Assembly: GCA_049976425.1 (NCBI GenBank)
Contig: JBMFIG010000002.1
Coordinates: forward strand, 57,078-121,077
Origin: Thermoproteus sp.
Lineage (GTDB): Archaea; Thermoproteota; Thermoprotei; Thermoproteales; Thermoproteaceae
Direction: 5' to 3'
DNA: 64,000 bases
Under the pieces are notes generated by a model. It was not told the origin of the DNA. It did no database searches and saw nothing but the letters and a program-made list of their open reading frames with translations. Shown piece by piece: positions 2 through 63,760 of this stretch (the stretch's first letter is position 1; each line of letters starts with the position of its first letter). The position numbers and the translations under genes are program-made.

Positions 2-1654
2 GCGGGAGGCGTCGCGGACTTCTACGCGTCGTTGCTGGGATATCTGATCTACGGAGGCCGCTACGTAGGGTACTCGCCTAGAGGCTACGGAGGATTTTCA
101 GGCTACGTCGCGGTAAGTCCTCTGAGCGGCAACGTGGCGTGGGACGGACATTACGGAGGCGTCACGCTCACAGAGGTCGGCGGGTACGGAGCCACGTCGC
201 GGCTGATCCCGTGGTCCTATCCGGCCCCCTCGGATCTGCCCACTTACGGCCTCGCGATGCTCCTATCGCGTTGGTCCTACTCGACGTCGCCGGACTATAT
301 ATGGGCCACGCTTGTTGGCGGCTATTACCAGTACACGAGCCCGGCCACCGACCCCATCACCGGCCTCACGGGTGTTGCCCAAGGAGCTGTCTTCGCCTCG
401 CCGCCGCCCAAGGGGCCCGCCTATCCGGCTGACGTGTACGTCTACGTGCTACAGCCGTGGGGTTCGGCGAGCCAAAGTGCCGCGTCGTATGTGTCGAGCG
501 TAGTGAGGGGGAATAACGGCCAGCCGATCGGCGCGATTCTGTGGTCGCTGGTGCCTCTGGTCCCATGTAGGTCGCTCTCCTGCGCCGATCCTCAGAAAGC
601 TTGGTGGAACGGCGAGTTCTCAGGGAACGCGGCGCTGAAGGGAGCGGCCTACGGGCTGGCCGTCATGTGGTTCGGCAAATCCCCCATCAGTGTAACCATA
701 TACGTCAACGCGAGCGGCGCGCGGTACGTCAACGGGTCTTGGGCTGGCTCGACGTGGCCGACGGCCGGGACCTGCAACATTTCCCTCGGCACATTCCAGC
801 TGGAGCCCCATAAGCCGTACTTGGTAGTGCCGGGCTCTGCGGTCCCCCTCCCCAACTCGTCCGGTTGCGGGCTGGCCCCGACTCCGCCGGGCTGGCTCCT
901 CACGCCCACAGACGATGGCTTCTTCTGGGTAGAGTTCGTAACCGGCAAAACGGCCAGCTACGGGTACTACTACACGACCGCGCTGGCCGTGAACTATACA
1001 GTATCCGACGACTTGGGCCGCCTCCTCCGCCCCGGCGAGATCTTCGCCGCCACTTTCTGTCTGGCGATAAACGGAACGAGACCATATCCCCCCTCCCTCG
1101 CCAACTGGTTCCCGTCTGGTTGCGCGCCGTTGGGCTGGCTTCCGCTGGACATATCGCATGGCCCCTACGTATATTGGAAGGCGGACTGCTCCGACGGCCA
1201 GGCAAGCGTGCGGGGCGATATAGGGCCCTACGCGGGTTTCGACGTGATGTTGGGGTCCGTGGGGCTGATGCACGGCTCCATATTATATGTATATATAAAG
1301 CCATATATTCTTGTAAATAGTTCTGGTATCTATATATATGTAGACAGTAATCTCAGTAAATATATAAAAGGCTATTATCTATATCTAAATAGAAACGGGA
1401 CGTGGGTACGTCAATATTTCTGTCCAGGCGACGTGATACACATGCCGTGGAGCGTGGCCGAGAAGCTGGCCGTATATCCCTGGGATCCCGTCAAGGTACT
1501 GCCCGCGCTGAGCCTCACGGCGCTCGCCAAGTCGGATATAGTGTACCCGATACCTCAGTGGTCCACCCTGGCCAACTGGTGGTCTCTGCCAACCGATGCG
1601 GGGATGTACAGCGACCTCTCTGCGCTCGCCTCGCTCGGCTGTATCCCCGCGTAG
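2..1654 (+). CDS. Large secreted/surface protein, C-terminal part (5' truncated by window edge)
   Basis: Frame is open from position 2; G/Y/W/P/S/T-rich, paired Cys, several NxS/T sequons; no recognisable catalytic motif. Confidence 0.6.
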   Translation, partial: AGGVADFYASLLGYLIYGGRYVGYSPRGYGGFSGYVAVSPLSGNVAWDGHYGGVTLTEVGGYGATSRLIPWSYPAPSDLPTYGLAMLLSRWSYSTSPDYIWATLVGGYYQYTSPATDPITGLTGVAQGAVFASPPPKGPAYPADVYVYVLQPWGSASQSAASYVSSVVRGNNGQPIGAILWSLVPLVPCRSLSCADPQKAWWNGEFSGNAALKGAAYGLAVMWFGKSPISVTIYVNASGARYVNGSWAGSTWPTAGTCNISLGTFQLEPHKPYLVVPGSAVPLPNSSGCGLAPTPPGWLLTPTDDGFFWVEFVTGKTASYGYYYTTALAVNYTVSDDLGRLLRPGEIFAATFCLAINGTRPYPPSLANWFPSGCAPLGWLPLDISHGPYVYWKADCSDGQASVRGDIGPYAGFDVMLGSVGLMHGSILYVYIKPYILVNSSGIYIYVDSNLSKYIKGYYLYLNRNGTWVRQYFCPGDVIHMPWSVAEKLAVYPWDPVKVLPALSLTALAKSDIVYPIPQWSTLANWWSLPTDAGMYSDLSALASLGCIPA

Positions 1655-1656
1655 GG

Positions 1657-2289
1657 TCAGCTACCGAACGCCCTATCGCCGGCATCGCCGAGCCCGGGCA
1701 CAATAAACCCGTTTTTGTTGAGGACCTCGTCTATAGCCACAGCGTAAACCTCGGCTTGAGGGTATGTGGACAGCACGCGCTCTACTCCTATCGGCGTCGC
1801 TATGACGGAGGCCACCATCAGCCTTTTAGGCGAGCCTCTGCCCAGCACCTCCCGTATCGCAGAGGCCATAGTGATGCCGGTGGCCAGCATCGGATCCGCC
1901 ATGAGGACCACCGAGCCCTCCACCTCCGGAAGCCTTACGTAATATACGTCGACGCCTATGGCGCCCCCCTCCTCCTTCCTCCTAGCCGCGATGACGCCTA
2001 TCTTGGCCTCGGGGAAGGCCTTGAGGAGCCCCTCGACGAGCGGCATGGCCGCCCTCAGCACCTCGACTATCACCACCTTGTCGAGATCCTCGAGCACCAA
2101 GCCCCTAGCCTCCCCCAGCGGCGTCTGGACCACGACCTCCCTTCTGGGAAACCTCTTGGCGATCTCGTACCCCATTATGCGGCCGAGCTTGACAAGGCCC
2201 TTGCGGAACTCCAGGCTGTTGGTGTTCTTATCGCGGAGTTTCGTGAGTACGTGTTGCGCGTATGGATGGTCAATTATATATACCGGCAT
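1657..2289 (-). CDS. upp: Uracil phosphoribosyltransferase
   Basis: [24 protein letters not shown] motif, C-terminal [14 protein letters not shown]. Confidence 0.97.
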
Positions 2290-2309
2290 GTGGAGCAGTA
2301 GACGCGGGT

Positions 2310-2361
2310 ATATGAAGATAGGCCCTTGTCCCGAGAGGTGACGAGAGTTCGCGCTCTGAAG
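2310..2361 (+). ncRNA. Box C/D guide sRNA candidate (16S rRNA-targeting)
   Basis: Intergenic C box ATGAAGA (2312), 12-nt guide, D' CCGA (2331), C' GTGACGA (2338), 11-nt guide, D CTGA (2356); canonical archaeal spacing. Confidence 0.8.
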
Positions 2362-8522: not shown

Positions 8523-10478
8523 GTGGAGTTTCGCGTCGTCGTTAACGGCGTGGAGATCGTGAGGGAGTGGAGCTGGGATAGAATATCCAAGGTCAAGGAG
8601 GAGTTGAAGAGAATGGGGTTCCGATGGACCGGCGGCGGGTGGGTGGGCAGATTGAGGGACCCCGCATCCCTATATGCGCTGAAGGCTTTGCTCGACCTAA
8701 AAGACGAGGAGCTGGAGGAGGTCTTGAAGGCAAGCGGCCTCGACTCGGGCGACGCGATACTGGTTGTAGGCGACATCCCCGACCGCCTGAAGCCCTACGT
8801 CGTGGCCTCCTACGGCTCCTCACACCTCGTATCTGCGACTAGGTTCATCAGAGACTTCGTGGCCTCGGACAAGAAGGCTATCGCCGAGGCTCTATCCTAC
8901 GACGAGTACGTGCGCCGCGCCGCCGAGGAGTTCAAGGCCTTGGTCGGAGGCATGGAGGTTAAGGGCGATCTGGAGGCCGTCGTGAAGAACGCCGTGGAGA
9001 TAGCTCTCGGCTCGGAGCGCCTTAAGGCGCTTTACGAGAAGCGGACGGCGTGGAGGCGCGTGGAGCTCTGGCCTACGAAGGCCGTGCTGAACTTCGCCGG
9101 AAGGGAGCTGTTCGCCGAGCTGGGCAACTTCAAGCTGGCGTACAACATCGTCGGGAAGGACGGCGAAGTGAAACAAGTTTTTATAAAACTTGTTAGAGCA
9201 TCAAGAGAAAATGATAAAGTAATAATAACATATCCAGTATTTATTAGAGATAAAATTTCTGAAGTGTTAAGAAAGTATGGTTATATTGTTGTAAAGAAAG
9301 ATTTGGAATATAGACAAGTCCAGTATAAACAGAACATATCGCTCTATGATTTCCAGAAGCGGGCTGTCGACAGCTGGGAGCGGGCGGGCAGGAGGGGCAC
9401 CATAGCGGTGCCCACCGGCGGCGGGAAGACCTTCATAGCCATGGCCGCCTTGGCCAGGGCGTCGACCACGGCGCTCGTATTAGCGGTTACGCAGGAGCTG
9501 GCCGCCCAGTGGGCGGAGCGGCTGAGGCGGTATCTAGGCGTGAGCCCCGGCATGTTGGGCGCAGGCAAACACGACGTGAGGGACGTCACGGTGGCCATAT
9601 ACAACTCCGCGGTGAAGTACGTCGACGAGCTGGTGGGGAAATTCGGCGTGGTTGTGTTCGACGAGGCGCACCACGTGCCCGCCGAGACGTTTAAGGAGAT
9701 AGCGCTGGCCCTCGACTCGCCCTTTAGGCTTGCTATATCGGCAACGCCCAAGCGCGAGGACGGCAACGAGCTGTTGATATACGAAGCGGTCGGCCCCTTG
9801 GTATATAGAGCTACATACACTGAGATGATAGAGGCGGGTCTGGTCGTCCCCGTGGAGCACTATAGGATATATATAAAGCCAAGTCCTGAGGAGGAACAAG
9901 AGTATAGGTCGGCCCAGGCTACTACGGACAACGCCATAGTCTTGCGGAATATAGCGTCTCAGATCTCGCCGAAAATCCCTATAGCCGTCGAGATAGTGAA
10001 GAGGGAGGTGGCCTTGGGCCACAAGGTGCTGGTGTTTACCCAGTTCCTGGAGCAGGCAAAGGCCATATACGATAAGTTGCGCGAGGAGTCGATACGCGCC
10101 GAGCTGATAACGTCGGAAGAGCGCGACAGGAGCTCTGCCTTCTCTCGTTTCCTCTCAGGGATCACGAAGGCCGTGGTAACCACCACAGTGCTTGACGAAG
10201 GCGTGGACGTGCCTGATGCGGACGTCGCCGTGATAGTCAGCGGTAGCGGCTCCAAGCGGCAGATGTTGCAACGGGTTGGGAGGGTGGTAAGAAAGGCCCC
10301 GGGCAAGTCCGTGGCGCGGGTGTACGAGCTGATAGCTAGAGGCACCATAGAGGAGGCGCTGTCGGAGGCCCGGCACGTGGACGACGTGATAGAGGAATCG
10401 GTATGTAGGAAGTTCTCAGAGCAGACCTTTAGGGAGTTCCTGCGTTCGACGAAGCTCACGGATTTCAGGAGCTTTTAA
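8523..10478 (+). CDS. XPB/Rad25-like SF2 helicase with N-terminal extension
   Basis: PTGGGKT, DEAHH, SATPKR, LDEGVDVP, QRVGRVVR. Confidence 0.9.
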   Translation: MEFRVVVNGVEIVREWSWDRISKVKEELKRMGFRWTGGGWVGRLRDPASLYALKALLDLKDEELEEVLKASGLDSGDAILVVGDIPDRLKPYVVASYGSSHLVSATRFIRDFVASDKKAIAEALSYDEYVRRAAEEFKALVGGMEVKGDLEAVVKNAVEIALGSERLKALYEKRTAWRRVELWPTKAVLNFAGRELFAELGNFKLAYNIVGKDGEVKQVFIKLVRASRENDKVIITYPVFIRDKISEVLRKYGYIVVKKDLEYRQVQYKQNISLYDFQKRAVDSWERAGRRGTIAVPTGGGKTFIAMAALARASTTALVLAVTQELAAQWAERLRRYLGVSPGMLGAGKHDVRDVTVAIYNSAVKYVDELVGKFGVVVFDEAHHVPAETFKEIALALDSPFRLAISATPKREDGNELLIYEAVGPLVYRATYTEMIEAGLVVPVEHYRIYIKPSPEEEQEYRSAQATTDNAIVLRNIASQISPKIPIAVEIVKREVALGHKVLVFTQFLEQAKAIYDKLREESIRAELITSEERDRSSAFSRFLSGITKAVVTTTVLDEGVDVPDADVAVIVSGSGSKRQMLQRVGRVVRKAPGKSVARVYELIARGTIEEALSEARHVDDVIEESVCRKFSEQTFREFLRSTKLTDFRSF

Positions 10479-10492
10479 AGGCGTGATAAGTT

Positions 10493-10672
10493 GTGGAGAT
10501 CGTCGAGGAGTACCTCTATCTATTGCTGGAGGCTGTAGCGGCGGCGGTATTTATGGCTGTAATAACTATGGTAGGCGAAGGGCTAATAAAAGATATTATG
10601 TTAATATATAAACAGAGTTTACAAGATATAAAATATATGCTAAATATAATAAAACATGAGAATATTATATAA
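10493..10672 (+). CDS. Small membrane/pilin-like protein (59 aa, not in ORF track)
   Basis: GTG start, MEIVEEYLYLLLEAVAAAVFMAVITMVGEGLIKD...; overlaps next ORF. Confidence 0.5.
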   Translation: MEIVEEYLYLLLEAVAAAVFMAVITMVGEGLIKDIMLIYKQSLQDIKYMLNIIKHENII

Positions 10673-10766
10673 TATATTGTTAATAATACTAATATTGTTT
10701 CTGCTGTGGATTCTTGTGCAGGTAGGAAATATCGTGAGTACAATGACTATACTTTTTATTAAATGA
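10656..10766 (+). CDS. Small single-TM protein (36 aa, not in ORF track)
   Basis: MRILYNILLIILILFLLWILVQVGNIVSTMTILFIK; ATGA overlap with downstream ORF. Confidence 0.4.
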   Translation: MRILYNILLIILILFLLWILVQVGNIVSTMTILFIK

Positions 10767-11032
10767 TATCACAAATTGAGGTTATATATGTAATTATTAT
10801 ATTGATCTTATCTTTATTTATATTTGTTTTATTTTCAAAAGTTGCTCAATCGTTATCGTTTGACAGGTATATATTTCTTCTCTCATTATATGCTAGATGT
10901 GGTAAAATCTATAATTATACATATTATTCCAATACATATTTAAATAATACTGTGCTTATTTGTATCAATATTACGTCGATTAATGGGAACCTCACGTATT
11001 CGGTCAGTTATCTGGTAGCCACACGGCCGTAG
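10763..11032 (+). CDS. Small pilin-like/membrane-anchored protein
   Basis: MISQIEVIYVIIIL N-terminus resembles class III signal; hydrophobic helix then NxS/T-rich tail with two Cys. Confidence 0.55.
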   Translation: MISQIEVIYVIIILILSLFIFVLFSKVAQSLSFDRYIFLLSLYARCGKIYNYTYYSNTYLNNTVLICINITSINGNLTYSVSYLVATRP

Positions 11033-11085
11033 TTTCGGTTCGTCTAGCCTCTTCACCGATCGTCCAGGCCAGACCTCCTCATCCG
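11033..11085 (-). ncRNA. Box C/D guide sRNA candidate (possibly tRNA-targeting)
   Basis: Minus strand: ATGAGGA, 12-nt guide, ACGA, GTGAAGA, 11-nt guide GGCTAGACGAA, CCGA; boxes degenerate but spacing canonical. Confidence 0.55.
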
Positions 11086-11285
11086 CTTTTCGTCTACACC
11101 TCTTCATTAAATCTTGATGCGAGCCGACTCGCATAATATGCTATTATATTGAAAACTTAATATAAAACAGCTAGAACATTTATTAAAAAATAAAATAAGC
11201 TCTTTTAGTTACTAAGATATTGTAAATAGAATACAAATAGTAAAGAGAGCAAGTAAGAATTAAAAAGGTATCCAAGGGAGGGGCC

Positions 11286-11627
11286 ATGGCCGAGCAGAGG
11301 GATCTATCCCAATACCAGAGGGTGGTGATCGACCAAGATCTATGTATATCATGCGGTGCATGCGTTGCCGTATGCCCCTGGCAAGCCCTTGAGCTGGACG
11401 AGAACGCGAAGGCGCGCCTGATCTGGGAGAAATGCTACGACGACTTCAGTTGCGTGGCGGCATGTCCCGTGAAGTGTATATACAAGGCCAGCGAGGCGCC
11501 TGACGACGCCAAGAAGAAGCCCAACTGGTACAGATTAGGCAGACAGTTGAGCCCCGACGAGCAGAAGATACTGAACGACTGGAAGGCGAAGTTCGGCATA
11601 CCGGTGGATCCGTTGCCTCCGAGCTGA
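11286..11627 (+). CDS. Dicluster ferredoxin with C-terminal extension
   Basis: CISCGACVAVCP and CYDDFSCVAACP; GGGAGGG RBS-like upstream. Confidence 0.92.
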   Translation: MAEQRDLSQYQRVVIDQDLCISCGACVAVCPWQALELDENAKARLIWEKCYDDFSCVAACPVKCIYKASEAPDDAKKKPNWYRLGRQLSPDEQKILNDWKAKFGIPVDPLPPS

Positions 11628-11651: not shown

Positions 11652-12416
11652 ATGGAAAAGATTTTTCAGATCGCCGATCTGTTAAACAGATCCAACTGCG
11701 CGGTAGCCCTTACAGGCGCCGGCGTGTCCACAGCCAGCGGCATACCAGACTTCAGAGGTCCCCAAGGCATCTGGAGAAGCGTAGATCCCTCCAAGTTCGA
11801 GATCTCGTACTTCTACCAAAACCCCGACGAGGTCTGGAGGTTGTTCATCTCGATCTTCGTGCCTAAGGGAGACGTCGTTCCCAACGCCGCGCATAGGGCC
11901 CTGGCGCAGCTGGAATCCATGGGGAGGCTGTGCGCCGTCATTACTCAGAACGTCGACGGGCTACATCAGGCGGCCGGGTCCGTCAGAGTCGTAGAGCTAC
12001 ACGGCTCGGTCAAGTACGCGGTATGTACAAAATGCGGCATGAAGTACACGCTCAGCGAGGTGCTATCGACATATGACGGCTCTGCGCCCAGGTGTAGGGT
12101 CTGCGGCGGTGTCTTGAAGCCCGACGTGGTGTTCTTCGGAGAGCCTCTGCCCCAGGAGGCGTTCAATGAGGCCGTATTGCTCTCGGAACTCGCCGACGTC
12201 TTCATGGTCATAGGCTCCTCGCTAGCCGTGGCGCCGGCAAACCGACTGCCGTTGATAGCTAAGAGACATGGGGCGAAGATCGTGATCATAAACTCCGGGC
12301 CTACCGAGATGGACGAAATAGCCGACATAGTGATCGAGGGGAGGGCCGAGGAGATACTTCCCAAGATAGTCGAGGCCCTAAGAGCAAGCTATAGCGAAGG
12401 GGCTTCTCGACACTAG
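11652..12416 (+). CDS. cobB: Sir2/CobB NAD-dependent protein deacylase
   Basis: GAGVSTASGIPDFRG, TQNVDGLH, HGS, CxxC..CxxC, KPDVVFFGE. Confidence 0.96.
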   Translation: MEKIFQIADLLNRSNCAVALTGAGVSTASGIPDFRGPQGIWRSVDPSKFEISYFYQNPDEVWRLFISIFVPKGDVVPNAAHRALAQLESMGRLCAVITQNVDGLHQAAGSVRVVELHGSVKYAVCTKCGMKYTLSEVLSTYDGSAPRCRVCGGVLKPDVVFFGEPLPQEAFNEAVLLSELADVFMVIGSSLAVAPANRLPLIAKRHGAKIVIINSGPTEMDEIADIVIEGRAEEILPKIVEALRASYSEGASRH

Positions 12417-12917
12417 GGATTTCGCGAGCTGTTCCCTTAACTTCGGCACGTCTATACAGCCGATCTTCTGAGGAGCGCCTTCGAGGAGCTCGAGCGCCTC
12501 CTGTGCCAGAAGGACGAACTTGTCGGGCGCCCCCTCCTGCAACTTGACGAAGGCGGCAGACATCAAAATCAGGCCCTGTAGAGCCCTATCGCCGCTCCTA
12601 CGCCAAGCCGGCTCTATCTCAGCATGGGCTTCCCAGAACCGCTCGGAGTTGAATAGCTCAACGAATCTGCCTATATCGCCGCTACCCAACGAGTCCTCAT
12701 CGGTTACGTCAATGACTGCGTAGACGCGTCCTACGGCCCCCTCTATCTTACGTCTGGCCTCCTCGGCATCGATGCCGCGCACGAGGATCTCAAGGTGGCG
12801 CGAGGCTATCCTTACGTTTAATGCGGGGAGGATGCCCCTTAGATCGCGCAATAGTTGGGCCCTCTGAGAGGGCGCGAAGCCCGGGTTTTCAGCTATTATA
12901 AGATATCGATCTCCCAT
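12378..12917 (-). CDS. DUF309 domain protein with N-terminal small alpha/beta domain
   Basis: LFNSERFWEAHAEIEPAW...QGLI signature. Confidence 0.85.
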   Translation of the reverse strand: MGDRYLIIAENPGFAPSQRAQLLRDLRGILPALNVRIASRHLEILVRGIDAEEARRKIEGAVGRVYAVIDVTDEDSLGSGDIGRFVELFNSERFWEAHAEIEPAWRRSGDRALQGLILMSAAFVKLQEGAPDKFVLLAQEALELLEGAPQKIGCIDVPKLREQLAKSLVSRSPFAIACS

Positions 12918-13250
12918 TTATATTTTAACAATGACCTTCTTCAAATCAAACTGAATATCAACGATAACTTTTAAATCACCATAACTCTGCTTAATGCGCC
13001 TCACGGCGGCAAGTGCTCTGTTTATCCTCTCCAACAGTTCTGCGTTATCCGGAAGCTCGCCGCCTGTATAGAGCTCGACCCCCTCTGTCAACTTCAGCTC
13101 GACGCCGAACGCCTTGGCCAGCTCGACGAACTTGAGATATCTCTCCTCCATTGCGGTTAGATTCTCTCTCTTATTCCTGTAACGTTCGGCGTATTCCTTC
13201 AACGAAGCGAGGATGTTCTCGAGCTCGCTGAGGGTGAGGAAGAGCGACAT
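12918..13250 (-). CDS. Hypothetical protein (helical hairpin + C-terminal beta hairpin)
   Basis: 110 aa ORF abutting DUF309 gene and overlapping upstream stop. Confidence 0.75.
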   Translation of the reverse strand: MSLFLTLSELENILASLKEYAERYRNKRENLTAMEERYLKFVELAKAFGVELKLTEGVELYTGGELPDNAELLERINRALAAVRRIKQSYGDLKVIVDIQFDLKKVIVKI

Positions 13251-13681
13251 TATCCCTGCCCTCCGTAGTAGTACGCTATCTCCACGTTTCCCACACAGAA
13301 CTTTATGTAGCCCGGCGTTATGTCGCGGCAGCCTAGCGTGTTGAGCTCCACCTCGGGCATTTTAAGGGGCTCAACAGGCCTCGCCTTGGGGAACGGCGGG
13401 ATCACTTCGGGCAGATCCTCCGGCGTTATGTACGTGCCGGACGGCTCCACGACAATGGAATAGTCCCTTAGCCCCAGTTTGTCGGCCATGTTGCTGGCGG
13501 TCACTATGCGCTCCATCAGCTCGCCGACGGCTCCGTAGAGATGTCCGAGAGAGCCGAGCTGGATTAGGTAGCGCCCCACCTGCCTGCGCGCGAACACTAT
13601 CGGCGTCGCCTCTATAGAAGACTGGACATCTCTTAAGGTCCATAATATTTGATCTATATTTCTAGAATTTATAATGATCAT
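13250..13681 (-). CDS. Hypothetical protein
   Basis: 143 aa ORF translationally coupled on both sides. Confidence 0.75.
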   Translation of the reverse strand: MIIINSRNIDQILWTLRDVQSSIEATPIVFARRQVGRYLIQLGSLGHLYGAVGELMERIVTASNMADKLGLRDYSIVVEPSGTYITPEDLPEVIPPFPKARPVEPLKMPEVELNTLGCRDITPGYIKFCVGNVEIAYYYGGQG

Positions 13682-13815
13682 AATATTATCCTAATTTTTT
13701 CATTATAAGGATCTATATATACTACTTCGTTCTCGCCAAGCACCTCTATCAGTTTTTGCTTTATTGCGGGATCTATGTTGAGCGAGGAGACCCTTACCTT
13801 TTTCAGACTCTTCAT
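13678..13815 (-). CDS. Hypothetical small protein (45 aa, not in ORF track)
   Basis: MKSLKKVRVSSLNIDPAIKQKLIEVLGENEVVYIDPYNEKIRIIL; ATGA overlaps at both ends exactly fill the gap. Confidence 0.7.
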   Translation of the reverse strand: MKSLKKVRVSSLNIDPAIKQKLIEVLGENEVVYIDPYNEKIRIIL

Positions 13816-21825: not shown

Positions 21826-21932
21826 AGAGTCCTAGAGATCCTAGTATTTAAGCTGAATTCTGCACGCAATACGTTATATGTGTAATTAAAATATTTTGAT
21901 AATATATAAATTTAAATTCATTTATAAATAAT

Positions 21933-42415: not shown

Positions 42416-42479
42416 GTGTTGTTGTTTGACTGTATTTTTAAGCTTTAAGCTTTTAAAAGCCAGTTTTCTTTTCGATTTC

Positions 42480-48952: not shown

Positions 48953-49021
48953 AGCTAGGGCGAGAGACGCGTTTTTAAAGAAGAGCTACGTCTATTGGCT
49001 AAATAGAAATATATAGCACTA

Positions 49022-50110
49022 CTATTTAATTCTCCTCTCCATCAACGACTCGACGAACTGCGGGGAGGCGTTTTCCAGAACCGCTACGAGGAGCCTCGCG
49101 GCATTTACCGCGTCGTCAACCCTAAGGACCTCGACGGGGGAGTGCACGTAGCGCGTGGGTATGCTTATGGCGACCGCGGGCACGCCCTCCCGCCGGAAGG
49201 CTATGGCCATGGCGTCGGTGGTGCCGCCGTAGAGGACCTCCATCTGGTGCGGTATCCCCTCCCTCCTCGCCACCTCGGCCACGAAGTCTCTGAGCCTCGG
49301 ATGCGCTATGAAGAGGCCGCCTCTCCCCCCGTCCATGACCTTTATGGCGGGGCCGCCGCCGAGCCTCACGACGTACTCCCTCTCTGATGTGCCCGGCACG
49401 TCGGCGGCTATGGTGGTGTCGAGCGCGACTGCGTAATGCGGGGCGACCCTCTCGGCAGCCACGGCGGCGCCCCTAAGCCCTACCTCCTCCTGCACGGTGG
49501 CTACGGCGTAGAGGGTCACCGGGAGCTCTCGAAGCCGTCTCAACGCCCACAACATGACAGCGAGCCCCACCCTGTCGTCGAAGGCCTTGCCGGTGACGGC
49601 GCCGTTTGCGAGCTCGGCGAACTCTCTGTCGAGGACGGCCACCGAGCCGACGCCTACGCCGAGCTTCTCCACCTCCTCCGCGCTGGAGGCGCCTATATCG
49701 ACGAATATGTCCTTCATCTCAGGCGCCTCCCTCTCCTTGCCCGGTTGCGTGATGTGGGGAGGCCTCGTCCCCACTACTCCCGGGATCTTCCTGCCGTCCC
49801 GCGTCCTCACGACGACTCTCTGCCCCACCAACGTCACCTCGTTCCAGCCCCCGATCGGCTTGACTCTCAGGAAGCCGTTCTTCTCCACGTGGTCCACCAT
49901 GAGCCCTATCTCGTCCATATGGGCGGCGACCATAGCCCTATAGTCGGACTTGCCGTGCTTGACGCCGTAGACGTTGCCCCACCTATCCACGAAGAGCTCG
50001 TCGACGTAGGGCTCCATCTCGGCGATCACTATCTCCCTAACTTCGTCCTCAAAGCCGGAGGGGCCGAAGGCCTCGGACAGACGCTTCAGCAGAGGTTTGA
50101 AGTCGTCCAT
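49022..50110 (-). CDS. M42 (TET-type) aminopeptidase
   Basis: AHMDEIG, KAFDDR, QEEVGLRG, GGTTD, RYVHSP. Confidence 0.95.
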   Translation of the reverse strand: MDDFKPLLKRLSEAFGPSGFEDEVREIVIAEMEPYVDELFVDRWGNVYGVKHGKSDYRAMVAAHMDEIGLMVDHVEKNGFLRVKPIGGWNEVTLVGQRVVVRTRDGRKIPGVVGTRPPHITQPGKEREAPEMKDIFVDIGASSAEEVEKLGVGVGSVAVLDREFAELANGAVTGKAFDDRVGLAVMLWALRRLRELPVTLYAVATVQEEVGLRGAAVAAERVAPHYAVALDTTIAADVPGTSEREYVVRLGGGPAIKVMDGGRGGLFIAHPRLRDFVAEVARREGIPHQMEVLYGGTTDAMAIAFRREGVPAVAISIPTRYVHSPVEVLRVDDAVNAARLLVAVLENASPQFVESLMERRIK

Positions 50111-50176: not shown

Positions 50177-51832
50177 CTATTGCTTGAGGAGGTCCCTATA
50201 TTTGTCCCGCAACACCTTTTTGTCTATCTTGCCGGTACCCGTCATTGGGAGGTCGGACACGACCATCACCTTGTCCGGTAGCCACCACTTCGGTATCTTG
50301 CCGGCGTCCACGAACTTCTGGAGATGCGCGATTATCTCGTCGGGATTTACGGAGGCGCCGGGCTTGGGCACGACGAAGGCCACGGGCCTCTCGCCCCACT
50401 TCTCGTGGGGTAGCCCGACCACAGCGGCTATCCCCACCGCGGGGTGCGTCATTATGAGATCCTCGAGCTGGAGCGACGATATCCACTCGCCGCCCGACTT
50501 TATGACGTCCTTGAGCCTGTCCACTATCTTTATCCTGCCGTCGGGGCACCAGACCGCCGCATCGCCCGTGTGGAACCAGCCGTTGCGCCAGGCGGTCTTG
50601 GTCTTCTCGGGATCTCCTATATATTCGGGGGTTATCCAGGGAGCCCTCAAGGCGAGCTCGCCCGCCGTCTTGCAGTCCCGCGGCACCGGCTTGTCGTTCT
50701 CGTCGACGACGGCGAACTCCGAGAGGGGGTTGGGGAGGCCGGTCATCACTATCAAGTCGTACGCCTTGTCTAGATCCTCCGGCAACTTCTCGGTGGGCTT
50801 GAAGAACCCAAGCGACACCACAGGCGCCGTCTCCGTCATGCCATAGCCCGTCCTCGGCACGAAGCCGGCGTCGGCCGCCTTCCTCGCGAGCTCCTTGGGC
50901 AACGCAGCGCCGCCGACTATGTATATCGGCGCAAGCCGCCTGATCCCCTCGACGTACTTGGGCAGATCGGGGTGGGTCACGAGCATGTAGAGTATCGTGG
51001 GGACGCCCGCCATGGCCTTGACCTCCTCCTCGACTATCAGCCTCAGTATGTGGCCGTAGTCGAACCTCCCCGGCATGACCTGCCTCCAGCCCATGAGCGC
51101 GTAGACCCACGGAAGGCCCCAGGCGTGTACGTGGAACATGGGGACCAAGTAGAGGGCGGTGCACGGCTTCCCGTCTATGTTAGCGCAGTCGTTTCTGGCG
51201 AGGCCTCTATAGCCGACGGCGGCTAGCGCCACGCTGAATGTGTGGAGCACGAGCTGTCTGTGGGTGAAGTAGGCGCCCTTCGGCCTGCCCGTGGTGCCCG
51301 ACGTGTAGAGCACCGTCGCGACTGTGTTCTCGTCCAGATCGGGAAGCTCCTTCTCCTCGCCCGACTTTATGACGTCCTCGATCTCGGGATCCTTCCCCAC
51401 GACCCCCATTCCGTCGGATATCTGGACGTAAAGCTTGACCGACTTGAGGTGGGGCCTCAGCTTGTCGACCAGCTGGGCGAAGTCTCTATGGTATATCAAG
51501 GCCTTGTCGCCGGCCTGATTTATAGTGTAGGCTATGTCCTCGGGCGCCAGGCGCACGTTGACCGTGTGGAGGGCCGCGCCTATGCCGGGCACAGCCCAGT
51601 AGAGGTCCCAGTGCCATATGGTGTTCCAGTCCAGCGTGGCGACCCGGTCGCCGGGTCCTATACCTAGCTTCCTCAAGCCGTCGGCCAGCCTCAGAATACG
51701 TCGATACTCCTCTCCATACGTCGACCTCCTATCGGCGCCGTGCGGCGGCCTGTGGACTATCTGCACATCGCCAAATACATAGTTTACATATCTCAGTAGA
51801 TTATTCAATGTTAGTTGATATTTGTAGGCCAT
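50177..51832 (-). CDS. Acyl-CoA synthetase (fatty-acid--CoA ligase)
   Basis: YTSGTTGRPKG, GYGMTE, DRLKDVIKSGGE, TGKIDK. Confidence 0.93.
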   Translation of the reverse strand: MAYKYQLTLNNLLRYVNYVFGDVQIVHRPPHGADRRSTYGEEYRRILRLADGLRKLGIGPGDRVATLDWNTIWHWDLYWAVPGIGAALHTVNVRLAPEDIAYTINQAGDKALIYHRDFAQLVDKLRPHLKSVKLYVQISDGMGVVGKDPEIEDVIKSGEEKELPDLDENTVATVLYTSGTTGRPKGAYFTHRQLVLHTFSVALAAVGYRGLARNDCANIDGKPCTALYLVPMFHVHAWGLPWVYALMGWRQVMPGRFDYGHILRLIVEEEVKAMAGVPTILYMLVTHPDLPKYVEGIRRLAPIYIVGGAALPKELARKAADAGFVPRTGYGMTETAPVVSLGFFKPTEKLPEDLDKAYDLIVMTGLPNPLSEFAVVDENDKPVPRDCKTAGELALRAPWITPEYIGDPEKTKTAWRNGWFHTGDAAVWCPDGRIKIVDRLKDVIKSGGEWISSLQLEDLIMTHPAVGIAAVVGLPHEKWGERPVAFVVPKPGASVNPDEIIAHLQKFVDAGKIPKWWLPDKVMVVSDLPMTGTGKIDKKVLRDKYRDLLKQ

Positions 51833-51859
51833 ATAATAGGGATTGTTCGTCCTTTTAAG

Positions 51860-52804
51860 CTATACGGGGTAGAGCTTGAGCGCGAGCTTCTGGAGGAAGC
51901 CGGGGACGTACCTTATCCCGCCCATGCCGACGCGGCCTGCGACGAACGGCGCGGTGGCCTCGTCCAAGAGGCGGAGGTCGTCCGCGGGCAACTGGAGCCG
52001 CAACGCGCCTGCGACGTCCTCGGCCTGTGCGGCGTTCTTCACGCCGGGTATTGGTAGGATCCCTCTGTGTCTGAGCCAGGCGAGGACCACGGCGGCGGGC
52101 GACACGCCCCTCCTCTGGGCAACCGCCTTGACGGCCTCTACGACCCTCCTCCCCGCCTCTGTGGAGGCTTTCTTGAATGCGGGATCCATGGACCTGGCTC
52201 TGTCGGGTCCCCACTTGCCCAACGCGGCGCCTTTGGCCAGAGGCGACCACGCGATGATCTTGACCCCCAGCTCCTCCGCCGTCTTCCTGAACTCCTCGGC
52301 GTCGGCCGCCCTGTTGAGGGGGTTGTACTCTATTTGGTCCGACACTATCTCGTGGCGTTTCAAACATTCGGAGGCCCGGCGGAGTAGCCGCGCGTCGAAG
52401 TTGCTCACGCCGATCTCCGCCGTCAGCCCCGCCTCCTTCAGCCGCTCCAGCTCTCTCAAGACCCTACATAGAGGCGCATATACGGGCGGGGGCCAGTGGA
52501 GCTGGAGGAGATCTATACGGCCGAGACGCGCCAGGCTGGCCTTGGCCGACTTCTCGACGCGCCCCCAGTGGAAGCCCGCAACCTTGGTGGCCACCACGAC
52601 GTCGTAGCCCCGTACGGCCTCGCCCACGAACCTCTCGGACTCGCCCCATCCATATATCTCGGCCGTGTCGACGAAGTTTATGCCTAGCTCGAAGGCCCTC
52701 CTATAGGCCTTGAGGAGCTCCGCCTTGTCTACCGTCCAGGCCCTGCCCCCGGCCTGCCAGGCGCCTATGCCTACATCGCTGACCTTGAGGCTCCCGAGCT
52801 CCAT
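51860..52804 (-). CDS. Aldo/keto reductase
   Basis: DTAEIYG, ATK, LHWP, IGVSNF, WSPL, PIPG; true start is ATG overlapping upstream TGA. Confidence 0.92.
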   Translation of the reverse strand: MELGSLKVSDVGIGAWQAGGRAWTVDKAELLKAYRRAFELGINFVDTAEIYGWGESERFVGEAVRGYDVVVATKVAGFHWGRVEKSAKASLARLGRIDLLQLHWPPPVYAPLCRVLRELERLKEAGLTAEIGVSNFDARLLRRASECLKRHEIVSDQIEYNPLNRAADAEEFRKTAEELGVKIIAWSPLAKGAALGKWGPDRARSMDPAFKKASTEAGRRVVEAVKAVAQRRGVSPAAVVLAWLRHRGILPIPGVKNAAQAEDVAGALRLQLPADDLRLLDEATAPFVAGRVGMGGIRYVPGFLQKLALKLYPV

Positions 52805-54540
52805 CAGCTCCTCCTCGCGGCTTCCTCCCTCAACGCCCTCTTCAATATTTTGCCTACGGCCGTCTTGGGCAGATCGTCTCTGAACTCGACGAGCCTCGGA
52901 CGCTTGTAGGGGGCGAGCCTCTCGGAGGCCCAGCCGATTATGTCTCCGGCCGATACCTTGCCCTTGCACTCGTCCTTCAACACTATATAGGCCTTGGGTA
53001 TCTCCCCAGCGTCGGGATCCGGCACGCCTATGACCGCCGCCTCCTTGACGCATGGATGCTGGTACAGCACCTCCTCGATCTCGCGGCTGAAGACGCTGTA
53101 GCCCTTGTACTTTATCATATCCTTCTTCCTGTCCACTATGTAGAAGTAGCCCTCCTCGTCCATATAGGCTATGTCGCCGGTCCTGAACCATCTGAGGCCG
53201 CAACACTCGAAGAAGGCCTCGGCGTTTTCCTCGGGCTTGTTGTGGTAGCCCTTCATGACCTGGGGGCCCGATATGACCAGCTCGCCGGTCTGTCCCGGCG
53301 GCAGGAGCTCCGGCTTGTCGAGGTCGGCCACTGCGGCGTACGTGCTCGGTATGGGCAGGCCTATGGAGCCGGGCTTGTGCCTCCCGTTGAGCAACGGGTT
53401 TAGGTGGGTCACCACCGCGGTCTCGGTCATGCCGTAGCCCTCCCTCAGGGGGGCGCCGGTCAGCTCCTCGAACTTCTTGGCGACCTCGACCGGGAGGGGC
53501 GCCGAGCCGGATATACAGAAGGCGAGGCTCCGCAGATCGTAGCGCTGCGCGTCTGGGCTGTGGATCATGACGTTGTATATAGTGGGTACCCCGTGGAAGA
53601 CCGAGGCCCTGTACTTGGCTATGTCCGAGAGCACGCGCCTCATGTCGAACCGCGGGTAGACCAACACAGTATGGCCTTCGAAGATGGCGTAGTGCATGAC
53701 GGTCACCTGGCCGTATATATGGTACCACGGAAGCACCCCCACCAACACCATGGGCTTGTCGGGCGGCATGCCCTTGGCCCTCCTGACCACGTCGTAGAAG
53801 GGCTTCAGCTGTTGTAGGTTGGCCGATATGTTTGCGTGGGTTATCTCGGCCCCTTTGGGGACGCCGGTGGTCCCGCCGGTGTACATCAGCGCCGCCAGAT
53901 CCTCCTCGGGCCTTATCGGCGCCCTGCCGGTCTCCCTCTCGTATCCCAACAGATCCGTGTACCTCTGGAAGACGCCGCCGTACCTCACCTTGGGCGGCCT
54001 TATCTGTCTCCTGGCCAGCGGCTTGAGCCACTTAGGCATGTACTCAGTCATCTCGACCACGTAGACCTTCTCGAACTTGTACTCCTCGAAGGCCTTGACG
54101 GCCTTATCGTAGAGCACGTCGGCGGTGAAGAGGACCCTTGCCGAGGAGTCCCTGGCCTGTCTGACGACCTCGCCGGGCGTGTAGAGCGGGTTCATGGGCG
54201 TCACGACGGCCCCGATCTTGAGCGCCGCGTAGAACGCCACGGCGTAGGCGGGGTGGTTCGGCATGTATATCGCCACGACGTCGCCCTTGGAGACGCCGGC
54301 CTCCCTAAGTGCTTTGGCGACCCTATCGCTGTGGTCCGCCAAGACTCCGTACTTCACCTTCCCCCCAAAATAGATATAGGCGGGCCTATCGCCGTAGGCG
54401 GCCGATCGATCTAGGTAGACATATAGAGGCTCCGGCTTTATCTCGACGTCCGGAGGGACGCCCTCGTCGTAGTTCTTAACCCAAGGCCGCGTCTTTATAT
54501 ATTTTTCGAAGACTTCCTTGGAATTCACTTGTCTATACAC
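52804..54540 (-). CDS. Long-chain fatty-acid--CoA ligase (FadD-like)
   Basis: YTGGTTGVPKG, EGYGMTE, GPQVMKGY, VGKILKR. Confidence 0.94.
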   Translation of the reverse strand: MYRQVNSKEVFEKYIKTRPWVKNYDEGVPPDVEIKPEPLYVYLDRSAAYGDRPAYIYFGGKVKYGVLADHSDRVAKALREAGVSKGDVVAIYMPNHPAYAVAFYAALKIGAVVTPMNPLYTPGEVVRQARDSSARVLFTADVLYDKAVKAFEEYKFEKVYVVEMTEYMPKWLKPLARRQIRPPKVRYGGVFQRYTDLLGYERETGRAPIRPEEDLAALMYTGGTTGVPKGAEITHANISANLQQLKPFYDVVRRAKGMPPDKPMVLVGVLPWYHIYGQVTVMHYAIFEGHTVLVYPRFDMRRVLSDIAKYRASVFHGVPTIYNVMIHSPDAQRYDLRSLAFCISGSAPLPVEVAKKFEELTGAPLREGYGMTETAVVTHLNPLLNGRHKPGSIGLPIPSTYAAVADLDKPELLPPGQTGELVISGPQVMKGYHNKPEENAEAFFECCGLRWFRTGDIAYMDEEGYFYIVDRKKDMIKYKGYSVFSREIEEVLYQHPCVKEAAVIGVPDPDAGEIPKAYIVLKDECKGKVSAGDIIGWASERLAPYKRPRLVEFRDDLPKTAVGKILKRALREEAARRS

Positions 54541-54546
54541 GTAAAA

Positions 54547-54594
54547 TGTTTTAAAAATTGAGTTAGCCCCACGACGAAATCAATATTTAAAACA
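54547..54594. promoter_or_regulatory. Mirror-image divergent promoter / inverted repeat
   Basis: TGTTTTAAAAATTGA-N18-TCAATATTTAAAACA (14/15 complementary) between divergent CoA ligase and ACAD. Confidence 0.65.
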
Positions 54595-58901: not shown

Positions 58902-59380
58902 GTGGAGGAGTTGCCGAAGCCTTGGCTCGACCCGGCGAGGTACAAGGAGGTCAGGCTTAAGGAGGCCCTCTACGAGGCGGAGATAGCGGAGCGTTTTCTG
59001 GAGACGGGCCTCGTCCGCAACGCGGCCGGGAAGGCGTTTCAGGCATGGAAGGCGCTCGTGGCGGCCTTCGCGTCAGACAAGCTTGAGGATTTGAAGAAGG
59101 CGTTCCCTGGGTATAAGCGGCTGAGGGGACAGCGGAGGAGGGTAGAAAGGGCTCTGTGGATCGTGGCGGTCATGCCTACGTCAAGGCTAAAGATCGTGGC
59201 CCAACTGGTCGGGGGCGACGTAGACCTATACACTAATCTAGCTCTCCTGCTCCACGAGTATCAGTACAATGGGCCGGACGCAGAGGGGTCTTGAGCGTCT
59301 ACCAGAGCGACGAGTCGGCGGCCCGCGACGTGGCCAAGCTTTTGGCCAAGATCAAGGAGCTCGCGCAACCGCGTCCGTAG
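58902..59380 (+). pseudogene. PaREP1 family protein, frameshifted at G run 59285-59288
   Basis: RNAAGKAFQAWKA, LHEYQYNGPD; adding one G restores EGVLSVYQSDESAARDVAKLL...* ending 59380. Confidence 0.8.
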
Positions 59381-61879: not shown

Positions 61880-61891
61880 GTAGCAAGGATC

Positions 61892-62482
61892 TCAGGACTT
61901 TATTAGGCCGAGGAAGCCGTCCGCGATTAGTTGCACAGCCCAGGCGGCCACTATGAGGCTGAAGAACCGCGAGAATATCTTGAGAGTATTGCTCCCGACG
62001 AGCTTGATCAGCAGGAGGGAGTACCTCATCGTGGCGTAGGTCAGCGCCGAGGCGACGGCTATGGCGAGCACCAGCGAGAGCGGGTTGTAGTACGTGGCCA
62101 TAACCATGACCGAGGTTATGGCGCCGGGCCCCACCAACATGGGCGTGATTATGGGCACGATCACGTAGTCCTCGGGGTTTATGCCCATGGTGCGGGGCGC
62201 CCCCTCCCTCAATATGTCGACAGCTATGACGAGGAGCAGTATGCCGCCGGCCGCCCTAAAGCCGTTGATGTTTATATTGAAGATGTAGAATATATAGGGG
62301 CCGCCCAGGGCGAACAGCAAGAGGAGGGACGGCACAGTCACCGCCACTAGCTTGAGGAAACGGGGGTACATCCTCTCGTAGTTGGGCAAGACCGCCAGCA
62401 GAGGTATCGCGCCCAGAGGATCGATTATGGCGTAGAGCTGGGCCGCGCCCACCAAGGCGTCCACCAACGAAAACGGTTGCAT
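61892..62482 (-). CDS. MarC family membrane protein
   Basis: IIDPLG, AGGILL, VPIITPMLVGPGAI. Confidence 0.93.
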   Translation of the reverse strand: MQPFSLVDALVGAAQLYAIIDPLGAIPLLAVLPNYERMYPRFLKLVAVTVPSLLLLFALGGPYIFYIFNININGFRAAGGILLLVIAVDILREGAPRTMGINPEDYVIVPIITPMLVGPGAITSVMVMATYYNPLSLVLAIAVASALTYATMRYSLLLIKLVGSNTLKIFSRFFSLIVAAWAVQLIADGFLGLIKS

Positions 62483-62695
62483 GACGGCGCCAAGTCGCCT
62501 CTATAAAAATTCGGCCCCCCGAGCAATCGGCCTCCGCCGCGGCCAAGCCTCGTGAAGCCGCCGTCATGGCGAGCCCGGCCGACGCGCCGCCGTCTCTCGA
62601 GACCTCGAGAGATCGTGGGGGCAGAGCCCTCCGTACTTGACAAATAGATAAATTATTATAATTATTAAATTAATTTCATATTAAAATGATTATGC

Positions 62696-63760
62696 CTATG
62701 TATTCTTCCTAAGTATATAGACCACAGCTACAGAGGCGGCGACGGCGGCGGCCAGGGCCACGAGTAGCGGCATGGGTGTGGGGATCTGCTGGCTCGATAC
62801 CGCGTTTCTGTAGCCGGTCTCGGGCCAGAACTCGACTATCACCGGCGATTTGCAGAAGCCGGCTAGCTGGAAGTACCTGGCCACGGCTCTCTCCGCCGTG
62901 CTCTTGTCGGGAGGCGTCCCGTTTATGTAGGGGAACACCAAGGCCAGAGGCCCCGACCACACCAATATGTGTATCATGTCGCGCCGTTCGACAGCGCCTA
63001 TCTCCTTCTCCATCTCTATGGCGGCGCTCCTCAACTTGTCTAGCTCGTCGTCGTTGAGCATGTAGGGCACCCAGTAGATCACGGCGCGGGGCCTCTCGCC
63101 GTTCGGCAACATGGCATATATCCTATCGAGCAACGCCAAGCTCTTCGAGACGTTCGTGGTCTTCACGACTATCGGCTGGCGTGGGAACGTATACGGCGAG
63201 ATCGAGAACACGACGTCGCCGAAGCTCTTCACAACTCCCTCTACCGCCGAGCCGTTGTTGTTCAACGCCGCGCCTAGACTGCGGAAGGCCTTGACGTGGA
63301 ACTTGGCCTCTATCTGGCCCAACGCGTCGTCCAGCGACTGGGCCGAGACAGACACCGTCTCGCCCCACAAGCCCTTGTTTACGTGGATCGTCACCAACAG
63401 AGTCACGTTGGGGCCGAGAGCCCGTATCGCCGCGTCGATGAGCACGTCGCCAGGCACGCGTAGCTCTGTAGAGTTAAGCAGGGACTTGTATATTTGATAG
63501 CTCGGCAGTAGCTCCGGCGCGGTCATCGGCGAGGAGTTTGCGTGCATATTTTTAACTATATAAACATAAACATCACAGCCGTTAACGGTGAGTATATATG
63601 TAGGTTTCAGGATATCTAGAATTTTAGTATCATTAACCACGATATATGGTAAGCTCTGATTTATCTGCGTGTTCTGGCTTGGAACAGCGGCCCGTGTTAC
63701 CATTACGAGCGACGTTGCTAGTATGATGATCGCCAACGTCGTTGGTGCCAACCTGGACAC
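62696..63760 (-). CDS. Secreted hypothetical protein with C-terminal TM anchor
   Basis: Signal peptide, NxS/T sequons, C-terminal hydrophobic helix + RK. Confidence 0.75.
   Translation of the reverse strand: MSRLAPTTLAIIILATSLVMVTRAAVPSQNTQINQSLPYIVVNDTKILDILKPTYILTVNGCDVYVYIVKNMHANSSPMTAPELLPSYQIYKSLLNSTELRVPGDVLIDAAIRALGPNVTLLVTIHVNKGLWGETVSVSAQSLDDALGQIEAKFHVKAFRSLGAALNNNGSAVEGVVKSFGDVVFSISPYTFPRQPIVVKTTNVSKSLALLDRIYAMLPNGERPRAVIYWVPYMLNDDELDKLRSAAIEMEKEIGAVERRDMIHILVWSGPLALVFPYINGTPPDKSTAERAVARYFQLAGFCKSPVIVEFWPETGYRNAVSSQQIPTPMPLLVALAAAVAASVAVVYILRKNT

Follow-up and report, generated by a model that had tools for sequence, protein, structure and literature searches.

We analysed a 64,000-nucleotide stretch of a Thermoproteus sp. 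genome (GenBank assembly GCA_049976425.1, contig JBMFIG010000002.1, positions 57,078 to 121,077 of the forward strand), hereafter the window, in which short tracts of very AT-rich DNA, here called AT islands, interrupt GC-rich sequence within, beside and between genes. The source genome (G000; 1.84 Mb, 96 contigs, GC 0.60) resembles a metagenome-assembled genome, and the only sequencing run containing the stretch is a hot-spring DNA metagenome. We find that the islands cluster at gene starts and that their composition sits at the AT-rich equilibrium of a substitution flux that runs through the whole genome. Comparison with related genomes indicates that they descend vertically and persist within one genus.

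The window has a mean GC of 0.595 (s.d. 0.079 over sliding 100-nt segments). Its lowest 100-nt value is 0.13; 50 first-order Markov shuffles of the same sequence never fell below 0.37. A two-state hidden Markov model (HMM; state GC 0.62 versus 0.22, parameters chosen by us) called 17 islands. A sequence-only reading of the window had listed twelve tracts, and its observation held in part: all its hand counts were reproduced (GC 0.22 at 1281–1380, 0.233 at 9181–9300 and 0.65 at 9061–9120) and its ten further patches ranged from 0.158 to 0.355, with five additional islands, found by threshold or HMM, at 26.5, 39.2, 44.3–44.7, 49.0 and 54.5 kb. Genes were called by a simple codon-score caller self-trained on the genome, which is prone to cut AT-rich 5′ ends short when choosing starts. 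For comparison, we used the congeners G007 (~95% identity), G008 (~82%), G002 (~68% amino-acid identity), G001, G006 and G004, and a sister genus that includes G010. The islands, and the two genes that carry one internally, are as follows.

Begins before the window and ends at 1654, plus strand: 957-aa open reading frame (ORF) without a Pfam family, host of the first island
1280 to 1395, plus strand: AT island called by the HMM, 116 nt, GC 0.21, deep within the 957-aa ORF
8523 to 10478, plus strand: gene for an XPB-like helicase of 651 aa (Pfam ResIII, Helicase_C and ERCC3_RAD25_C)
9166 to 9352, plus strand: AT island, 187 nt, GC 0.26, spanning residues ~215–277 of the XPB-like gene, just ahead of the helicase core
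10584 to 10984, no strand assigned: long AT island, 401 nt, GC 0.21, in an 800-nt non-coding gap 3′ of the helicase gene; AT-rich throughout in congeners, at 401, 395, 488 and 343 nt
11133 to 11271, plus strand: AT island upstream of a ferredoxin gene (11286–11627), including its B recognition element (BRE) and TATA box; sequence differs between congeners save around the TATA box, AT-richness being kept
12886 to 12995, minus strand: AT island at a same-strand junction, covering the last 78 nt of gene 12918–13250 and the first 32 nt of gene 12378–12917; kept in four congeners (110–113 nt, GC.20–.27)
13642 to 13727, minus strand: AT island spanning 40 nt at the start of gene 13250–13681 and the 46 nt before it; kept in five congeners (86–92 nt, GC.14–.30)
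21842 to 21972, minus strand: AT island between the stop of gene 21933–22742 and the start of a small gene at 21559–21825; a 74-nt part is missing from G006 and G001
33932 to 33990, plus strand: short AT island within the opening codons of a solute-binding-protein gene (33898/33928–35253)
35291 to 35338, plus strand: short AT island within the opening codons of an ABC permease gene (35268–36158)
42377 to 42497, no strand assigned: AT island over a divergent promoter pair (starts 42415 minus and 42480 plus) and the first codons of both genes
44327 to 44370, plus strand: short AT island near the 3′ end of a permease gene (43439–44530)
44638 to 44732, no strand assigned: intergenic AT island after 44530
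48972 to 49031, minus strand: AT island between the stop of gene 49022–50110 and the start of gene 46961–48952; kept in G007 and G002
51773 to 51864, minus strand: AT island covering 60 nt at the start of an AMP-binding enzyme gene (50177–51832) together with the spacer that precedes it; also present in G007 and G008
54494 to 54592, no strand assigned: AT island over a divergent promoter pair (starts 54528/54540 minus and 54614 plus); kept in G007, G008 and G002
62634 to 62719, minus strand: AT island upstream of a MarC-family gene (61892–62482), extending to the stop of the next gene
63546 to 63664, minus strand: AT island at or upstream of the start of gene 62696–63547

The statement that several tracts lie inside intact genes is true of two of the twelve listed tracts (1280–1395 and 9166–9352). 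The remaining ones occupy gene starts, gene–gene junctions and intergenic DNA, some covering the first or last 30–80 coding bases. For six starts in the window (11286, 42415, 42480, 54528, 54614 and 63526), a strong BRE/TATA match at −33 to −20 falls inside an island, under a strict position weight matrix (PWM) threshold passed by about the top 12% of true promoters. PWM scores were 10.1 for the ferredoxin gene, at the correct distance from its ATG, 11.1 and 10.4 for the divergent starts 42415 and 42480 (Pfam solute-binding protein and permease), and 10.0 for each promoter of the divergent pair at 54494–54592. The candidate start at 63526 scored 9.1; the frame of gene 62696–63547 continues open to 63760 and its true start is uncertain. 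Rfam matched two tRNAs in the window and no RNA family in any island. Within the AT-rich gap at 10479–11285 there is also a small ORF (~10657–10767) whose product would be a hydrophobic peptide of ~36 aa.

Differences between G000 and G007 in the 957-aa ORF fall 45/40/146 across the three codon positions without gaps, marking it as a real gene. Within its island GC at codon positions one to three is.28/.21/.13, against.56/.53/.74 outside, and the island has equal length and GC in G007 and G008. An antisense ORF of 217 aa (620–1273, minus strand) lies within the same gene, with a strong promoter-like match at its GTG, and that match sits within the island. This ORF is probably spurious, since the substitution pattern fits the plus-strand frame.

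The helicase core of the XPB-like protein begins at residue 272, and full-length orthologues exist in both genera. At the position of its island, GC is.24 in G007,.29 in G008,.29 in G002,.35 in G001 and.49 in G006. The residues it encodes are homologous in all orthologues and unchanged in length, so that no insertion is involved, and the site is not AT-rich in three of the four sister-genus orthologues. In G004 (C2:22001–27500, reverse-complement coordinates 2588–2700), the XPB orthologue changes frame within the AT island, giving a 236-aa ORF followed by a 424-aa ORF whose ATG lies inside the island. The change may be genuine, as a split gene or a frameshift, or it may reflect misassembly of AT-rich runs.

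Genome-wide, the HMM called 461 islands of GC ~0.2, together 2.9% of the sequence (median 104 nt, interquartile range 63–137, modal class 100–120 nt), in a genome whose long ORFs have GC of 0.60/0.44/0.80 by codon position. Averaged over 306 islands, GC falls at the edge from 0.55–0.57 to 0.21–0.26 within 10 nt, with no ramp, and no GC clamps were found beside the islands (flanks stay at.55–.58 up to the edge). Of the 365 islands of at least 60 nt, 95 are internal to called genes, 75 of them in well-scoring genes, and 270 are not: 100 touch only a gene start, 46 only a gene end, 93 a start together with the end of another gene, and 31 lie elsewhere. Island coverage reaches 7–7.5% at −100 to −25 of gene starts versus 0.6–0.9% in gene bodies, and an island is present at 17.4% of divergent junctions, compared with 8.8% of tandem and 4.3% of convergent ones (chi-square P=9e-9). 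About 90% of gene starts have none.

Internal islands are evenly spread along gene length and occur in core genes, including those for Rad50-like protein, TopoVI-B, family-B DNA polymerase (PolB), the A″ subunit of RNA polymerase (RNAP A″), V-ATPase subunits, ribonucleotide reductase (RNR), RIO kinase, NOG1, NMD3 and archaeosine TGT; the PolB island crosses the YGDTDS stretch of the catalytic core. They are confined to genes with low GC at third codon positions (GC3), measured over the rest of the gene (Mann–Whitney P=2.5e-22). By GC3 quintile, the lowest (mean.73) holds 58 of 74, the second 12 and the third 4; the top two (~545 kb) hold none. Across 117 bins of 10 kb, island-masked GC3 and island count correlate negatively (Spearman −0.64, P=4e-15), and stretches of several tens of kilobases with GC3.68–.76 carry 4–11 islands per 10 kb, against 0–2 where GC3 is.83–.89. 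Upstream islands are nearly independent of gene GC3.

The low-GC3 domains themselves (island-masked.68–.76 versus.83–.89 elsewhere; C1:10–50 kb, C5:30–70, C6:10–50, C13:10–40 and C14:0–30) form a large-scale compositional structure rich in information-processing genes (Rad50-like, TopoVI-B, PolB, RNAP A″, RNR). The RNR gene (G000:C13:11811–15566) carries an intein with a LAGLIDADG domain by Pfam. For annotation, AT-rich dips within ORFs of this genome should not be taken for gene boundaries, and starts beside islands are easily miscalled.

The sequence-only reading described synonymous codons switching to A/T and back, and placed the pressure on nucleic acid rather than on protein; both points stand. 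In 57 in-frame islands genome-wide, GC by codon position is.28/.20/.19 versus.55/.40/.72 in the flanks. Across the 75 islands in well-scoring genes, observed GC is.227; it could be no lower than.158, and the encoded amino acids under genome codon usage predict.425. Amino-acid composition, which had been named as a possible full explanation, thus accounts for 50% of the drop, with N, I, K, Y and F enriched 1.4–2.8-fold and A, P, G, R and V reduced. The cause of the islands acts at the level of DNA.

Within islands, AA/TT is under-represented (0.91) and AT and TA over-represented (1.12), and the top hexamers are ATATAT, TATATA and AAATAT, TATA-like hexamers being enriched. Searches of hexamers, dinucleotides and AA/TT plus TA autocorrelation found no motif beyond TA-rich hexamers and no 10–11 bp phasing. 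Sense-strand runs of five or more T are weakly avoided in intragenic islands (16 observed versus 23.4 ± 3.9 expected). The islands do not form a repeat or mobile family of the kind of miniature inverted-repeat transposable elements: 52 of 66,430 pairs among the 365 islands are similar, mostly on the small contigs C41, C88, C91 and C93. The AT-rich segments of those contigs resemble each other, up to 99% over 83 nt and others ~75% over 95 nt, and are probably one repeat or array split across short contigs.

Aligning orthologues from relatives, as the sequence-only reading had proposed, placed most of the AT-rich codons at the same positions within the genus and found GC-rich coding in the sister genus. 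In blocks aligned to G007, all 61 islands were retained, with identity of.927 in islands versus.930 in flanks. In the orthologue comparisons, which used 400-kb samples of G002, G010 and G007, intragenic islands were AT-rich in 6 of 7 orthologues in G007, 15 of 26 in G002 and 1 of 26 in G010 of the sister genus. Upstream islands were kept in 26 of 27 cases in G007 and 18 of 22 in G002 (baseline 16%, P=2.7e-10); in G010 they were kept in 3 of 16 (baseline 10%, not significant). Window islands mostly recur at the same place and length in G007, G008, G006, G001 and G002 where their flanks were anchored. The sequence of intergenic islands is almost wholly divergent between congeners save around the TATA box, and AT-richness persists.

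Intermediate orthologue GC3 values (.35–.47) exist, which argues for gradual change. Two islands present in G000 and not in G002 keep their amino-acid identity (.87 versus a background of.84 in TopoVI-B;.78 versus.74 at C1:33091–33198), which means that the DNA was recoded synonymously in place. Relative to the sister genus, amino-acid identity is.41 in islands and.53 outside them. G007 and G002 are single-contig genomes showing the same islands, so assembly artefact is excluded. In aggregate, these alignments support vertical descent and long persistence of islands within the genus.

Islands are more abundant in this genus than in its sister. In a survey sampling 100 kb of each other genome (samples ran from 100 to 400 kb overall), dips of more than 0.28 below the median numbered 16.4, 12.8, 23.5 and 8.0 per 100 kb in four genomes of the genus, 3.5, 6, 4, 8, 4 and 1 in six sister-genus genomes and 2 in two genomes of another family. 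The sister genus thus has 2–20 times fewer islands, and its genomes G015 (GC.613) and G017 (.602) are equally GC-rich. None of the gene content searched separates the two: histone-fold proteins were found in 0/8 and 0/8 genomes, UDG in 8/8 and 8/8, and reverse gyrase as one full-length copy in each (in G000, one full-length TIGR01054 match at C15:16675–20304). The SMC hinge, found in 0/31 genomes of the order, does not distinguish them either.

To ask in which direction islands are changing, we considered differences between G000 and G007 polarised by parsimony against the G008 outgroup (~82% identity), over 20 islands and low-complexity alignments. Islands showed 34 changes from G/C to A/T (S>W) and 54 from A/T to G/C (W>S), at an actual GC of.22–.23 and an implied equilibrium of.26–.38. 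Non-island intergenic DNA showed 123 and 41, at an actual GC of.54 and an implied equilibrium of.28; third codon positions showed 1898 and 506, at.85 and.61. The island ratio differs from that of intergenic DNA (Fisher P=2.9e-8) and from that of third positions (P=1.4e-15). Per site, islands differ from other intergenic DNA with an odds ratio of 1.38 for S>W (P=0.12) and 1.63 for W>S (P=0.02). These counts, with their near-equal rates, indicate that an AT-directed flux runs genome-wide and that non-island DNA is held far above its equilibrium. In islands we see no suppression of W>S changes, and composition is at flux equilibrium. Of the earlier suggestion of local mutation bias, a locally raised rate therefore finds no backing in the S>W odds ratio, and an AT-rich equilibrium of the genome-wide flux does describe the islands.

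The claim that clusters recur roughly every 10 kb did not hold. A Rayleigh scan of 3–16 kb in the window gave a best period of 10.4 kb (R=0.59, scan-corrected p=0.08), the twelve midpoints originally listed gave p=0.09, and contigs C1, C3, C4, C5 and C6 showed no such period, R staying near random expectation. With a coefficient of variation of 1.06 in the window and 1.31 genome-wide, spacing is random to clustered; the seeming regularity arose partly because islands near 26.5, 39.2, 44.7, 49.0 and 54.5 kb went unlisted. Periodic chromosome-architecture elements are not supported, regular spacing beyond chance being absent in the window and on the five other contigs. An origin unwinding element was also rejected: there are 461 islands, and the sole Cdc6_C (Orc1/Cdc6) match lies on the island-poor contig C9, origin recognition box repeats not having been searched for.

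The suggestion that islands are melting sites is plausible in silico. A nearest-neighbour helix–coil model at 0.3 M salt and 86 °C, which leaves out loop entropy, supercoiling and proteins, predicted 14 of the 17 window islands to be more than 50% open, versus 5 bp elsewhere in the 64 kb. Predicted melting temperatures at 0.3 M salt, from an empirical formula, were 68–79 °C for islands versus 89.5–98 °C for flanks, a gap of 10–28 °C. The growth temperature against which we read these values is assumed from the genus.

The account that we lean towards, with confidence a little short of even, is that islands are tracts exempt from a GC-maintaining pressure, in which AT-biased mutation has run to equilibrium, and that the reason for the exemption is physical. 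Recent substitutions run strongly from G/C to A/T genome-wide; a GC-favouring pressure would hold most DNA far above the flux equilibrium, and where that pressure is inactive composition would run down to an AT-rich equilibrium at which the two directions now balance, the tolerance of the encoded protein being the sole limit. Tracts of such length and composition are predicted to melt at the temperature at which this hyperthermophile, which has a reverse gyrase, grows, and no other DNA is. Most islands lie at gene starts, and near promoters opening may be useful or harmless; the minority in weakly GC3-biased coding DNA would cost amino-acid changes. Once a tract is open, a single A/T to G/C change would buy no stability, and such cooperative, two-state melting would explain why the edges are sharp and why the tracts persist so long. 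By analogy with Thermococcus, islands may also be local targets of reverse gyrase and a single-stranded DNA (ssDNA)-binding protein.

A more specific version would make islands inherited 'open-state' domains of ~100 bp that melt at growth temperature and exist in one of two states, duplex and GC-maintained or open and AT-saturated. They would give reverse gyrase, ssDNA-binding protein and transcription initiation fixed sites of entry or relief, and would have arisen in one genus and been written through core genes such as PolB and XPB. This version is tentative and on balance doubtful.

Several points weigh against the exemption account. A purely physical cause leaves the genus-specificity unexplained, because the sister genus is equally GC-rich, has one reverse gyrase and carries few islands; we also take it to live at least as hot. 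Melting in vivo is itself something we infer, from a model that ignores supercoiling, proteins and loop entropy. Some intergenic islands have conserved lengths (139/140/141/145 nt; 86–92 nt), a hint of constraint beyond composition. Half of the islands lie on gene starts, a placement with which a regulatory protein-binding role is equally compatible. The substitution counts are small, at 88 polarised events in 20 islands, by parsimony and with an outgroup at ~82% identity. Finally, the GC-favouring pressure may be duplex-stability selection, codon selection or biased gene conversion.

Because genus-specificity is left unexplained, two rivals stay alive. In the first, which we consider unlikely, islands are positively selected to bind a protein peculiar to the genus, with a chromatin, roadblock or silencing role, or else extended regulatory complexes at promoters, and selection keeps them AT-rich. 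A lineage-specific protein would account for the lineage-specific abundance, and the strong enrichment at gene starts, the 82% retention of upstream islands in G002 over the 16% baseline and the conserved lengths of several intergenic islands all fit it. So does a published analogue in Thermococcus kodakarensis, where TrmBL2/Smc peaks lie on DNA of at least 75% AT (PMC11840125). Against it, no motif beyond TA-rich hexamers and no phasing accompanies the islands, intergenic islands diverge freely while composition stays constant, and their W>S rate is not below that of other intergenic DNA, its excess being in the wrong direction for AT selection. Internal islands also shun all high-GC3 genes, which resembles tolerance rather than targeting, and no histone separates the genera. 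The related proposal of SMC-type loading or boundary sites fails, as the SMC hinge (PF06470) was found in 0/31 genomes of the order (a control search recovered it in 10/14 known genomes) and islands are rich in TA steps and poor in A-tracts.

The second surviving rival supposes locally raised mutagenesis, in which open DNA deaminates cytosine faster and AT-richness feeds on itself. Island S>W changes comprise 33 transitions and 1 transversion, where third positions have 1444:343 (Fisher P=0.013), the unpolarised transition/transversion ratio among differences between G/C and A/T is 6.6 in islands versus 3.0–3.9 elsewhere, and the per-site S>W rate is 1.2–1.5 times that of other non-coding DNA. 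The transition excess is nevertheless not significant against other non-island sites (first and second positions plus intergenic, 943:114; P=0.25), and neither is the rise in rate (P=0.12). Islands moreover are at steady state rather than decaying (34 versus 54 changes), none of 61 was gained or lost at ~5% divergence, and both genera have UDG genes. Extra deamination thus has a weak case, and we judge such a ratchet quite unlikely.

Intragenic islands might instead be internal or antisense promoters, or former gene junctions, giving separate products such as a helicase-only XPB. The XPB island does lie exactly ahead of the helicase core, the frame shift in G004 falls within it with the second ATG inside, and TATA-like hexamers are enriched in islands generally. 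However, no strong BRE/TATA match combined with a correctly spaced start and an ORF of at least 50 aa was found in the XPB island; the sole such match in the 1280–1395 island leads the antisense ORF, whose frame misfits the substitution pattern. With internal islands evenly spread along genes and crossing catalytic cores such as that of PolB, we find this very unlikely.

A cause in amino-acid composition, or in selected clusters of rare codons for translational pausing, is largely refuted and highly improbable. N, I, K, Y and F are enriched and AT-ending codons are rare in the genome (GC3 0.80), but composition covers half of the GC drop, about three quarters of islands are not internal to genes (270 of 365) and the orthologous residues are GC-coded in the sister genus. 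Recombination of short pieces from AT-rich donors, insertion of mobile DNA and faulty assembly are scarcely credible sources of the tracts: despite their sharp edges and the short conversion tracts of similar length known in Crenarchaeota, their residues are homologous without length change, amino acids are kept in some G000-only islands, intermediate states occur, two single-contig congeners share them and few island pairs are alike.

Set beside known systems, the islands have partial counterparts. Preprints on T. kodakarensis describe reverse gyrase binding AT-rich regions that, without it, denature at 95 °C and recruit RPA (10.64898/2025.12.08.692931), and acting locally at AT-rich, underwound promoters (10.64898/2025.12.08.692955). 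The present islands are likewise local AT-rich tracts in a hyperthermophile with a reverse gyrase gene, many at promoters, with predicted melting temperatures at or below growth or stress temperature (the growth temperature here being assumed). By those accounts, the Thermococcus tracts span at least 200 bp at 55–75% AT, the strongest being genes or proviruses gained by horizontal transfer, whereas the islands here are ~100 bp, ~80% AT and inherited vertically, and one in four passes in frame through a core gene.

TrmBL2 stalls Smc–ScpAB in T. kodakarensis at A-tract-rich DNA of at least 75% AT, at a scale of 100–200 bp and with tens to hundreds of sites per genome (PMC11840125). AT content, scale and number resemble ours; those sites correlate with A-tracts, whereas the islands here have AA/TT at 0.91 and TA/AT at 1.12, no regular spacing and no SMC hinge in the genomes searched.

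Ordinary archaeal core promoters (BRE/TATA, leaderless) are another likeness, about half of the islands covering a gene start and six window starts having matches. Across 675 genes, however, the genome's own promoter profile is AT-rich only at −31/−30 (BRE) and −27 to −20 (TATA), other upstream positions being ~47–50% AT. Islands are therefore not ordinary promoters, as the normal AT-rich stretch is ~12 nt rather than ~100 nt, and most gene starts are islandless. Like xenogeneic AT islands or H-NS-type targets in bacteria, they stand out as AT-rich within a GC-richer genome and would be expected to draw promiscuous transcription initiation; unlike those, they occupy orthologous positions in core genes, are not foreign and measure ~100 nt rather than the size of a gene. 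No silencer is known in this lineage. Horizontally acquired AT DNA was likewise rejected: residues are homologous, lengths equal, 61 of 61 islands are shared with G007, and some show synonymous recoding with the amino acids retained.

Other features of the window lie apart from these questions. A 12-kb stretch (33132–45194) is missing at this place in G007 (block breaks C2:90209 and C2:102271) and unaligned in the G008 contig. It encodes two tRNAs and two ABC transporters, one of the phosphate type with PhoU and the other for branched-chain amino acids, and is possibly an indel adjoining tRNA genes. Rfam placed the tRNAs at 38802–38894 and 39053–39125; ARAGORN called the second only (tRNA-Asp). 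The 93-nt length of the first suggests that it bears an intron. A gene of the PaREP1/PaREP8 family, which is typical of this archaeal group, lies at 58902–59294.

A full-text search of a limited literature collection found no prior description of in-frame AT islands in this lineage. That AT-rich DNA is a weak point guarded by reverse gyrase in hyperthermophiles was shown only recently, in the two 2025 preprints (10.64898/2025.12.08.692931 and 10.64898/2025.12.08.692955). This genus offers a natural extreme test case, with hundreds of sharp, ~80% AT islands long conserved in 60% GC DNA. Some cross the catalytic cores of essential enzymes at a measurable amino-acid cost, one relative carrying a possible frameshift, and a sister genus of equal GC content largely without islands provides a built-in contrast. 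The islands thus supply concrete coordinates for mapping ssDNA, reverse gyrase and transcription start sites. They also part AT-biased flux from the GC-maintaining force within a single genome, in keeping with the general finding that prokaryotes exceed the GC content predicted by mutation bias (reported in PMC6867656), and bear directly on the old question of why this is so.

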